Part shown: in pieces, positions 49,033 to 50,335 of the stretch | Layout of the letters: each line of letters begins with the position of its first letter | Numbering within the stretch: position 1 is the first letter of the stretch | Sequence record: NC_031934.1 | From: Escherichia phage MX01 | Length of the DNA stretch: 64,000 nt | Strand: one strand, 5' to 3' | Program-made: the position numbers and the translations under genes | The notes under the pieces: model-generated | Database searches by the model: none | Told to the model about the DNA's origin: nothing | What the model saw: only the letters and a program-made list of their open reading frames with translations

Positions 49033-49272
49033 TCACGCTTTCTTAGCGATTTTCCAGTCAGCTTTAAATTGGTCGACATCAGAGCGGTGAATCCAGAAGC
49101 CAGATGAGCTACCGTCTTCATAAAGTGGGCAGCCATCACACTCATCTTTCCAACCCATCGCACACAAAGCTTGTTCAGCTTTTTCCAGAGCTTCCGGGTT
49201 ATTACCTTGGATTGTGAAGTACCATTTGCCTTTAACTTCAGAATCGTTGATTGATTCACGTTGTAATTTCAT
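49033..49272 (-). CDS. Hypothetical protein (frd.x slot)
   Basis: 79 aa; GGAG RBS and early promoter cassette upstream. Confidence 0.5.
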
Positions 49273-49279
49273 TTTATTC

Positions 49280-49320
49280 TCCTTAGTTGATAAGGCTATA
49301 GTATCACTACCATAGCCTGG
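49280..49320 (-). promoter_or_regulatory. Early promoter cassette (GTTTAC-N18-TACTAT) with inverted repeat AGGCTAT/ATAGCCT
   Basis: Arms at 49293-49299 and 49312-49318 flank the -10. Confidence 0.55.
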
Positions 49321-49327
49321 TGTAAAC

Positions 49328-49573
49328 TTATTTTTGAATTAAGCCCATATAAAATTTAGCGTCTTCCGGGTGCATACCGTCACAATACTCGTAAGCCATA
49401 AAGCGGGTAAGGTCTTCAAGAGGACCTTGGACTTCAATTTGCATACTACAGAATTGAGTATCTTTAATATGGGTCATAACTAAAGAAGGATAACGATTAC
49501 GGATAACTTCGTAAGTGTATTCAAAATCAACGATATCAATATTAACCTTAGCCATTTTATTTTCCTCACTCAT
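49328..49573 (-). CDS. Hypothetical protein (frd.x slot)
   Basis: 81 aa; early promoter cassette upstream. Confidence 0.5.
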
Positions 49574-49574
49574 T

Positions 49575-49620
49575 AGTTGATAGGTCTATAGTATCATGTT
49601 TAAAGGCGTTGTAAACATTT
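49575..49620 (-). promoter_or_regulatory. Early promoter cassette, near-identical to copy at 50290-50335
   Basis: Shared about 60-nt sequence TTAGTTGATAGGTCTATAGTATCATGTTTAAAGG..TTGTAAAC (plus strand). Confidence 0.55.
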
Positions 49621-49879
49621 ATTTTTGAATTTTATCAAGCCATTTACCAAGTTTAATCATTTCTTTGGTAGCTTTTTCCATACTTCTAAATTTAACCAGT
49701 AAAGGTTGGGCATCAACACCCATAACTAAGGTGGTTACAAGACTATGTTCACCTACAAGCCATAATGAATAAGTTTGGATATCGAGCCCGTAATTTCGGT
49801 CTTTATGAACTCGTACACCCATCACTTCAAATTTCTCACTGGCTTTTTCTACTGCATCCAGGAAATCATCTTTAGTCAT
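49619..49879 (-). CDS. Hypothetical protein (frd.x slot; start at internal ATG)
   Basis: 86 aa from MTKDDFLDAV; upstream gene stop 1 nt away. Confidence 0.45.
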   Translation of the reverse strand: MTKDDFLDAVEKASEKFEVMGVRVHKDRNYGLDIQTYSLWLVGEHSLVTTLVMGVDAQPLLVKFRSMEKATKEMIKLGKWLDKIQK

Positions 49880-49880
49880 A

Positions 49881-50270
49881 TTAGGCCTTAAAAGTTTTTT
49901 GCAAAAGTTCAATGATTTGGTCAACGTTCTGTTCGGTGACAATGCAATGGATTTGAGTCACACCGGCCTTAGCAATAGGCTCATCGATTTCTTTATCTTC
50001 CACAACATATTCACAGAAGCAATAGAACTCATCTTCATGCAACTCAAAATAATTTGGCACCAACCCAAATGCATTATAAATCTCGCCGTTAGCACATTCG
50101 ATTTCAGTCACAAATTTGTCGCCATCCATAGTCAACATATCCTTTACTTCAAACCAACCTCCGTTGTCTTGGATAAGGTCGACCATGCTTTTATTATTTT
50201 CATATTCGTCCATTTCAATAAAGTCTTTAATGCATTCAGGACGAAGTTCATAAGTTTTACCGATTTCCAT
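49881..50270 (-). CDS. Hypothetical acidic protein (frd.x slot)
   Basis: 129 aa; early promoter cassette upstream. Confidence 0.5.
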   Translation of the reverse strand: MEIGKTYELRPECIKDFIEMDEYENNKSMVDLIQDNGGWFEVKDMLTMDGDKFVTEIECANGEIYNAFGLVPNYFELHEDEFYCFCEYVVEDKEIDEPIAKAGVTQIHCIVTEQNVDQIIELLQKTFKA

Positions 50271-50289
50271 TTTATTTCCTCATCTATTA

Positions 50290-50335
50290 GTTGATAGGTC
50301 TATAGTATCATGTTTAAAGGTATTGTAAACCATTA
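50290..50335 (-). promoter_or_regulatory. Early promoter cassette, near-identical to copy at 49575-49620
   Basis: Same GTTTACAA-N-TACTATAGACCTATCAACTAAT core on minus strand. Confidence 0.55.

Follow-up and report, generated by a model that had tools for sequence, protein, structure and literature searches.

The interval between gene 32 and frd of Escherichia phage MX01 (NC_031934.1), which was analyzed within a 64,000-nt window of this genome, carries three copies of a composite module in which an early-type promoter is fused to a leader, a Shine-Dalgarno (SD) sequence and an ATG. Our analysis confirmed that these repeats are real, non-random early promoter/ribosome-binding site (RBS) modules of an already described, genome-wide kind, which makes this an ordinary finding. 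Very probably, they are immediate-early modules of the T4 type that belong to a genome-wide family, two of them (copies A and B) being nearly identical by recent common descent. Positions given below are those of the window unless assigned to WG01, and the cassettes as well as the frd cluster are on its minus strand. The 2.1-kb region around the cassettes showed 99.0% identity to Enterobacteria phage vB_EcoM_IME540 and 98.7% to Escherichia phage WG01, and it matched the whole JS98 group (genus Dhakavirus, Tevenvirinae); the window is that of a Dhakavirus, i.e., a JS98/WG01-like T4-type coliphage. Each module begins with a UP-like A/T tract that overlaps the upstream stop codon, followed by GTTTAC(A), a 17- or 18-nt spacer ending with TGn, and TACTAT. 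Downstream of the -10 come the conserved start-site region AGACCT-A-TCAAC and a leader 18 to 26 nt long, and the module closes with a strong SD, a run rich in A and the ATG. The three copies of the 32–frd interval are the following:

50268..50335, minus strand: cassette A, before the FRD2 gene; -35 hexamer GTTTAC at 50330-50325, 17-nt spacer, TGn and -10 hexamer TACTAT at 50307-50302, predicted start at about 50295, SD GAGGA at 50281-50277, ATG at 50270-50268.
49553..49631, minus strand: cassette B, before the FRD3 gene; -35 hexamer at 49616-49611, 17-nt spacer, -10 hexamer at 49593-49588, predicted start at about 49581, SD GAGGA at 49567-49563, ATG at 49555-49553.
49270..49340, minus strand: cassette C, before frd.1 (DUF5417); -35 hexamer at 49327-49322, 18-nt spacer, -10 hexamer at 49303-49298, predicted start at about 49291, SD GGAGAATAAAA at 49282-49272, ATG at 49272-49270.

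With spacers of 17, 17 and 18 nt, all three copies have GTTTAC(A) as their -35 element, TACTAT as their -10 element and TG before the latter. The A/T-rich tract of cassette B holds the last codons and the stop codon of an 86-aa open reading frame (ORF) in ATTCAAAAATAA, a sequence common to copies B and C, and the tract of cassette C includes the stop codon of the FRD3 gene. An earlier note on this DNA had described the same module upstream of the small frd.x ORFs, and a motif search over the whole window bore this out. Four strict matches to GTTTAC-N16-19-TACTATAG were obtained, all on the minus strand, with -35 hexamers starting from 9937, 49327, 49616 and 50330, while shuffled sequences gave none; for the form with N17/18, four matches likewise stood against 0 expected. 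Three of these copies lie in the 32–frd interval (A at 50330, B at 49616 and C at 49327). When up to three mismatches were allowed, GATACTATAGMCYTATCAACTAA was found at 49283-49305, 49573-49595, 50287-50309 and, before alc with three mismatches, at 42335-42357 (0 expected). A repeat search aligned 49556-49621 with 50270-50335 at 86% identity without gaps, and 42318-42383 was grouped with them at 65%. The near-identity claimed for 49553-49620 and 50268-50335 was also recovered by a gapped alignment, in which A (50335-50268) and B (49620-49553) agreed in 63 of 70 columns, including 43 of the 45 core positions from GTTTAC to CTAAT. This description fits the A/B pair only, as copy C (49332-49270) shared just 49 of 70 columns with A or B (~70%), differing by its 18-nt spacer, by AGCCTTATC where A and B have AGACCTATC, and by its GGAG SD. 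Two related copies further away, placed by the same note before an ORF at 9878 and before the alc orthologue at 42319, were both real:

9878..9937, minus strand: family member before an 88-aa ORF (phrog_6003), between genes 23 and 24.
42319..42378, minus strand: family member before alc.

To say that the modules punctuate the frd.x cluster understates their distribution, as the family is genome-wide. A relaxed scan of the window revealed at least 12 members instead of the five of the earlier note, each located 21-41 nt upstream of an SD-ATG, with the following -35 hexamer starts (minus strand):

54245, 50330, 49616, 49327, 42378, 41087,
38643, 35469, 35063, 24497, 12683, 9937.

We also scanned the complete WG01 genome, which yielded 48 candidates, 47 of them on the minus (early-gene) strand. 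Approximately 41 of the candidates were convincing, all on the early-gene strand, and their consensus, anchored on the -10, was aaAaA..gGTTTACAtc..ct.....cgTGaTAcTATagaCCTAtcaA. Hence, the layout of the family is an A/T-rich tract, GTTTACA, TGn, TACTAT and AGACCTATCAAC, then the SD and the ATG. TGn was present in 36 of the 41 WG01 cassettes, and the 20 nt upstream of the -35 had an A+T content of 74%, against 60% for the genome. Conservation was strongest exactly at the -35, TGn and -10 with the correct spacing, and the middle of the spacer was poorly conserved. Within the start-site region, the block CCTATCAAC (approximately -3 to +6) occurred 15 times on the minus strand of WG01, where a cassette -10 always preceded it by 25 nt or less, and a single copy was present on the opposite strand; in the cassettes of the window it is found, for example, at 50299-50291 and 49585-49577. 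It might affect promoter escape, the identity of the 5' end or the shut-off of early promoters, and this invariant block could be a target of such a shut-off. As a query, the 73-nt cassette B matched 11-15 places per Dhakavirus genome and gave weaker single matches in many other Tevenvirinae, for a total of 448 phage records. No Rfam family matched anywhere in the window at gathering thresholds, and ARAGORN predicted no tRNA or tmRNA in it.

T4-type early promoters (Pe), the 'UP/-35/TGn/-10' promoters of Tevenvirinae, are reportedly covered by the work of Wilkens & Rüger and by that of Miller et al. from 2003. In early promoters of T4, the -35, TGn and -10 elements are described as excellent, and they are accompanied by UP elements and by 'additional regions of consensus' (Hinton, 2010, PMC2988021). 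As the -35, GTTTAC occupies positions -36 to -31; the tract from -40 to -44 is A-rich, and C is preferred from -3 to -1 (PMC1524935). In RB69, 57 promoters of this kind were reported, many of which precede novel ORFs (Nolan et al., 2006, PMC1524935). The family described here shares with them the GTTTAC -35, the 17/18-nt spacing, TGn, a TAnnnT -10, the A-rich upstream tract, the C-rich -3 to -1 positions, the location 5' of early genes or small novel ORFs, the presence of dozens of copies per genome and their restriction to the early strand. It differs by favoring TACTAT over TATAAT and, apparently, by an unusually fixed start-site block AGACCTATCAAC. T4 itself has a GTTTAC-N18-TACTAT promoter after the gene 32 terminator and before frd.3, as well as a GTTTAC-N18-TACTAT-TACCCTATCAA promoter upstream of frd.1. 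The temporal classes of T4 genes place frd.2, frd.3 and frd among the early ones at both the RNA and the protein level, and frd.1 at the RNA level (PMC9697503 supplement); the frd.x genes are mentioned neither in the DksA T4 paper nor in the main text of the T4 omics paper. Judged from their sequence, the cassettes display all the hallmarks of T4-type early sigma-70 promoters, fused to leader, SD and ATG, and they stand within a dispersed family, 5' of orthologues of early-transcribed T4 genes, which is consistent with the early promoters proposed in the earlier note.

We considered whether the repeats could be MotA/AsiA-dependent middle promoters or gp55 late promoters, which we regard as highly improbable and rejected on motif and spacing. 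In favor of this reading, the prereplicative (early-middle) period is when frd and td are required, and the frd.3 spacer of some relatives holds TGCTTTA, which resembles a MotA box. However, the MotA box, (a/t)(a/t)TGCTTtA, is centered at -30, lies 11-13 nt from the -10 and replaces the -35 (PMC1524935), while the cassettes have GTTTAC at this place. In C6 and IME08, TGCTTTA is only 7 nt from the -10 where 11-13 nt are required, and the window has CCTTTA at the same position. As for a late function, the TATAAATA late motif was absent from all three cassettes.

Composite units of this type have been described as promoter-early stem-loops (PeSLs), in which an upstream stop codon in A/T-rich DNA is followed by an early promoter, a stem-loop, an SD and an ATG (Arbiol, Comeau & Krisch, 2010, PMC2839356; Comeau et al., 2014, PMC4122927). 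According to these studies, the stem-loop is located between the -35 and -10, overlaps either box or lies shortly before them; PeSLs are scattered over hyperplastic regions and have been linked to indels and mini-circles; and in T4/PST the promoter takes the form TTTACW-N17-TAYWAT (PMC2839356, PMC4122927). Their promoter activity was shown by lacZ fusion, promoter plus terminator activity being experimental only in RB49/phi1 (PMC2839356, PMC4122927). The cassettes have in common with PeSLs the whole unit from the upstream stop through -35, -10 and SD to the ATG, the dispersal in variable early regions, a promoter that fits TTTACW-N17-TAYWAT, and a stem-loop between or over the boxes (copy C and many WG01 copies) or just upstream (copy A). 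For the 41 WG01 cassettes, the longest perfect stem between the spacer and the -10-to-ATG segment was compared with 10,000 permutations of the pairings. Stems formed by a cassette's own halves had a mean length of 6.46 nt, compared to 4.78±0.18 nt for permuted pairings, and 0 of the 10,000 permutations reached the observed value. Moreover, stems of at least 9 bp were present in 12 of the 41 cassettes vs 3% of cross pairs. The folds of individual cassettes in the window, designated by their -35 hexamer starts, and the hairpin within cassette C were as follows:

49327, cassette C: -16.1 kcal/mol, z -3.26, 2 of 200 shuffles as good.
38643: z -2.7.
35063: z -3.5, with a 12-bp hairpin over the -10.
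42378, alc cassette: z -2.94.
50330, cassette A: z -0.43, no significant structure.
49616, cassette B: z +0.29, no significant structure.
49293..49318, minus strand: hairpin inside cassette C; 5' arm AGGCTATGGTA in the spacer, loop GTGA, 3' arm TACTATAGCCT made of the -10 and discriminator.

The hairpin of cassette C has an 11-bp stem (AGGCUAUGGUA/UACUAUAGCCU) and is kept in JS98, IME08 and C6; the T4 promoter upstream of frd.1 has an AGGGTA/TACCCT pairing in its place. Its arms AGCCT/AGGCT are each one base shorter than the AGACCT/AGGTCT arms of WG01 cassettes 62055 and 71385. In many family members, the -10 or the SD is engaged in a covarying hairpin; this holds for copy C and the alc copy and not for A and B, and copy A has a stem-loop only by way of the gene 32 terminator just upstream. 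The stems differ from those of the RB49 PeSLs in that they are not of the G-run/C-run type and lack a U-tract, so that a terminator activity of these internal stems is doubtful, and the gene 32 hairpin is the only one with the features of an intrinsic terminator. Another difference is that indels of the frd cluster mostly break at the SD/ATG and not between two PeSLs. Based on the fold results and on the terminator upstream of A, PeSL membership is good for copy C, acceptable for A and incomplete for B.

The cassettes also differ in their SD. The strong-site consensus of RegB/S1 is GG*AGRAYARAA (Durand et al., 2006, as cited in PMC3014915). The SD of copy C, GGAGAATAAAA (49282-49272), matches this 11-nt consensus exactly, and the SD regions of copies A and B (GAGGAAA(A)TAAAA) are without GGAG. 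The likeness to the RegB/S1 sites of T4 early initiation regions is therefore that of copy C only. In WG01, GGAGRAYARAA occurred eight times, all on the minus (early) strand, and 8/8 were the SD of a cassette, one of them being the orthologue of copy C. The WG01 annotation includes an endoribonuclease beside vs.1, and a regB orthologue is likely present in this close relative. The SD of copy C would be a RegB target, and for copies A and B, whose GAGGAAA SDs have no GGAG, escape from RegB is predicted; from these sequences, translation of frd.1 would be shut off by RegB, and FRD2 and FRD3 would escape it.

The spacer of the alc cassette has an arm, TCTCCTCAT, whose complement ATGAGGAGA is located at the SD, and the T4 alc promoter keeps this pairing with a different sequence (AAGTCC(C)TC/GAGGACTT). 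Both at alc and at frd.1, T4 and Dhakavirus retain a pairing although the paired sequences differ. Seven WG01 cassettes contain perfect anti-SD stems of 8-12 bp, the non-SD extensions of which covary (CATG, GTAG or ATTA), and approximately 9 of the 41 stand out by their SD accessibility, with a 5' arm upstream of the start site and a 3' arm over the SD. Across the WG01 family, the mean SD accessibility in read-through RNA was no lower than with swapped promoter halves (0.34 vs 0.28) and was close to that with shuffled spacers (0.341 vs 0.334). The fraction of strongly masked SDs was 32%, against 22% for shuffled spacers, an effect that is not significant family-wide. An anti-SD function for the whole family was consequently rejected, as accessibility was no lower than in controls and only the subset of ~9/41 stood out. 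The SDs of A, B and C were predicted to be unpaired in read-through RNA with probabilities of 0.44, 0.57 and 0.68, and sequestering of the SD was not observed for these three copies; it was found computationally for the alc cassette (42378).

Leader hairpins that sequester the RBS are known for the T4 genes e, soc, 49 and I-TevI (reviewed in PMC3014915). The ~9/41 WG01 cassettes and the alc cassette resemble them in that read-through RNA would mask the SD, while RNA from the cassette's own promoter would leave it unmasked. They differ in that the internal promoter is early here and late there, and the three frd cassettes do not have this feature. Tentatively, we propose that in a sizeable subset of cassettes the promoter could encode the 5' arm of a hairpin, such that read-through RNA would fold and have its SD masked, and own-promoter RNA, devoid of this arm, would be translated, then cut by RegB. 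The 3' arm may correspond to the -10/start site (copy C, 38643 and 35063) or to the SD region (alc 42378 and ~9/41 WG01 cassettes).

On the minus strand, the order of elements is gene 32, terminator, cassette A, FRD2, the 86-aa ORF, cassette B, FRD3, cassette C, frd.1/DUF5417, frd and td. The elements other than the cassettes have these coordinates:

50383-51294, minus strand: gene 32.
50342..50366, minus strand: intrinsic terminator of gene 32, GGGAAGAC-TTCG-GTCTTCCC then TTTTT (hairpin 50366-50347 plus T-run), directly upstream of cassette A.
49881..50270, minus strand: FRD2-family gene, 129 aa (PF03197, E 2.5e-35).
49619..49879, minus strand: 86-aa ORF (phrog_4423), with its ATG 1 nt past the FRD2 stop codon and without its own promoter.
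49328..49555, minus strand: FRD3-family gene, 75 aa (PF05798, E 6.4e-38).
49033..49272, minus strand: frd.1/DUF5417 gene, 79 aa, upstream of frd.
48444-49025, minus strand: frd (dihydrofolate reductase, DHFR), starting 7 nt past the frd.1 stop codon and without its own cassette.

An equivalent gene 32 terminator, followed by a promoter, is found at the same place in T4, and the terminator 3' of gene 32 is kept in 5/6 T4-like genomes (PMC1524935). The gene order in T4 is P-frd.3-frd.2 and that of Dhakaviruses is P-FRD2-ORF-P-FRD3; a recombination between A and B would restore the T4-like '32-terminator-P-frd.3' junction. The earlier note had correctly recognized cassette B and had assigned its ORF the start 49573, an ATG inside the predicted leader and without an SD. 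Most likely, the FRD3 gene starts at 49555 instead, where the product (MAKVNIDIV...) gives a full-length Pfam FRD3 match (residues 1-75), an SD (GAGGA) lies 7 nt upstream, and the annotation of relatives places the equivalent start.

Several features near the cluster or elsewhere in the window also distinguish MX01 from its relatives. A 214-aa homing endonuclease (phrog_7504, E 2.7e-113) is encoded at 51393-52037 (minus strand) between genes 32 and 59, and it has no counterpart in WG01 and JS98 (685 nt here vs 43 nt there). In T4, segG occupies the same position. This endonuclease could lead to co-conversion of the neighboring 32/frd.x region and add to its mosaicism. Between td and nrdA (47525-47530), the nrdA.1 ORF (~290 nt) of WG01 and JS98 is missing, and no cassette is present at the breakpoint. 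Gene 24 (head vertex; 9981-11261, plus strand) is in a single copy here and in two tandem copies in WG01 and JS98, a difference of ~1.28 kb in the alignment chain. Finally, 25892-30643 consists of three tandem repeats of ~2.05-2.09 kb, 64-84% identical, which correspond to three Alt-like ADP-ribosyltransferase paralogues, JS98 having two.

The 32–frd interval contains 4 to 7 ORFs among Dhakaviruses, and this comparison of gene content agrees with the variable, accessory-gene region proposed in the earlier note. The same note had each small gene in its own portable cassette, which is not supported as stated, since three cassettes serve four small ORFs plus frd. Portability itself can be retained in part, for one gene of phage 04086 that carries its promoter and for hints of spacer swaps, but the other insertions seen in relatives break at the SD/ATG and bring no promoter. 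In JS98, dhaeg and MN04, an frd.2a copy without its own promoter is bounded by an 18-nt repeat at the FRD2 SD/ATG (50273-50256). A 113-aa ORF, also without its own promoter, is inserted before frd, exactly between GAGGAAA and the frd ATG, with a second (81-aa) ORF beside it in JS98, MN04 and 04086. The frd.2a, 113-aa and 81-aa insertions are all joined at GAGGAAA...ATG initiation motifs (window positions 49014-49025 and 50256-50273), suggesting a role of SD/ATG microhomology as recombination junction. The only event of the other type was seen in phage 04086, where frd.3 and frd.1 are separated by an additional FRD2-like gene that brings its promoter along. One breakpoint lies 18 nt short of the FRD3 stop codon (49346), the other at the SD of frd.1 (49282), and the event also replaced the frd.1 promoter. 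As regards indels bounded by promoters, chaining of the window against JS98 and against WG01 gave few events and a weak association. On this sequence evidence, promoter-to-promoter shuffling does not appear to be the main mode of change, and SD/ATG microhomology appears at least as important. Downstream of cassette 41087, the start of the ORF (40717-41030) is replaced in JS98 (312 vs 291 nt), with one breakpoint 8 nt before the ATG.

Traces of exchange were also found inside the promoters. The spacers of A and B are identical at 15/17 positions here and at 16/17 in WG01. At the orthologous frd.3 promoter, three alternative spacers occur in different phages within conserved flanks. The spacer of C6 and IME08 is 17/17 identical to that of WG01 cassette 164305, and the spacer of JS98 and dhabil is 17/17 identical to that of WG01 cassette 71385. 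Over the core of the JS98 frd.3 promoter, identity was 40/40 to WG01 71385 vs 35/40 to the WG01 orthologue. These spacer swaps suggest, without proving it, an exchange (conversion) between cassettes. Another pair, 35063/35469, is 95% identical over 55 nt (34989-35043 and 35395-35449, minus strand), a segment that reaches from the -10 to the ATG and includes a long leader. The two cassettes differ in -35 hexamer and spacer, and the ORFs downstream, 30.7- and 30.8-like, have no obvious similarity by eye.

The likeness of the copies could also be explained if each had independently reached the optimum of a strong early promoter and translation start, at fixed sites that do not exchange cassettes. 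We consider this unlikely, even though it would account for the tight family consensus from -45 to +10 and at the SD, for the constant location of orthologous cassettes throughout the Dhakaviruses examined and, in part, in T4, and for gene gains and losses in the cluster that mostly break at the SD/ATG and not at promoters. Against it, A and B agree at 15 to 16 of 17 spacer positions, although conservation of the spacer's middle is poor in the family as a whole. Because their near-identity includes this functionally unconstrained spacer, it argues for recent common descent and not for promoter constraint alone. Fixed sites also fit poorly with frd.3 promoter spacers that are 17/17 identical to those of distant paralogues, with the 55-nt leader of 35063/35469 at 95% identity before ORFs without obvious similarity, and with the 04086 gene that arrived with its promoter. 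Less probable still, the unit might act mainly as an RNA element (the operator of a RegA-type repressor or an RNase site) or as a recombination signal, its promoter likeness being secondary. In its support, the transcribed CCTATCAAC and the A-rich SD region are conserved in addition to the promoter, 8/8 occurrences of the RegB strong-site consensus in the WG01 genome fall on a cassette SD, and many cassettes have hairpins. Nevertheless, conservation peaks at the -35, TGn and -10 with correct spacing, no Rfam match was obtained in the window, and A and B have no significant RNA structure. The RNA-level features add to the promoter function and do not replace it.

Several results weigh against immediate-early modules with an A/B pair of recent common descent, which remains our preferred explanation. 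A generic sigma-70 scan of the region was not enriched (12 sites vs 18 expected), and the case therefore rests on the extended T4-type consensus. No transcript data were found for this phage or any Dhakavirus, and the start sites are accordingly predictions. Copy B has no significant stem-loop (z +0.29) and thus lacks one of the features that define PeSLs. Most indels of the 32–frd cluster are not bounded by promoters and break at the SD/ATG. Only ~2 of the 18 breakpoints between the window and JS98 touch a cassette (41030 and 50256-50273), a weak enrichment, so that promoter-mediated mobility finds little support here. Lastly, the frd.3 spacer differences amount to 3 to 5 nt in 17, which is compatible with point mutation.

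Combining the sequence with the T4 and RB49 literature, we propose the following scheme for these immediate-early modules. Host sigma-70 RNA polymerase, possibly ADP-ribosylated by Alt, would fire them within the first minute of infection, with initiation at approximately 50295, 49581 and 49291. The gene 32 terminator upstream of cassette A would isolate the cluster, and A, B and C would act as tandem re-initiation points, producing nested transcripts through FRD2, the 86-aa ORF, FRD3 and frd.1 into frd and td. The hairpin of C would form only in RNA reading through from A or B, with attenuation, processing or stability as possible roles. The likeness of A and B would have arisen from duplication, insertion or gene conversion between cassettes.

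By itself, the finding re-identifies T4-type early promoters/PeSL-like cassettes in a phage of the JS98 group and matters little, and the 32–frd interval had rightly been flagged as a variable region. It does provide a clean extended consensus for Dhakavirus early promoters, of use for annotation and for the design of strong portable promoters. Three by-products are the exclusive coincidence of RegB strong sites with cassette SDs, gene swapping in the cluster that would use SD/ATG junctions at least as much as promoters, and the idea that promoter-embedded hairpins may insulate the translation of read-through RNA. If the latter were true, read-through RNA would be poorly translated and protected from RegB, making the cassette a self-insulating expression unit. 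The late-promoter mechanism of e, soc and 49 would then extend to early promoters, and PeSL stem-loops without a U-tract would have a function.

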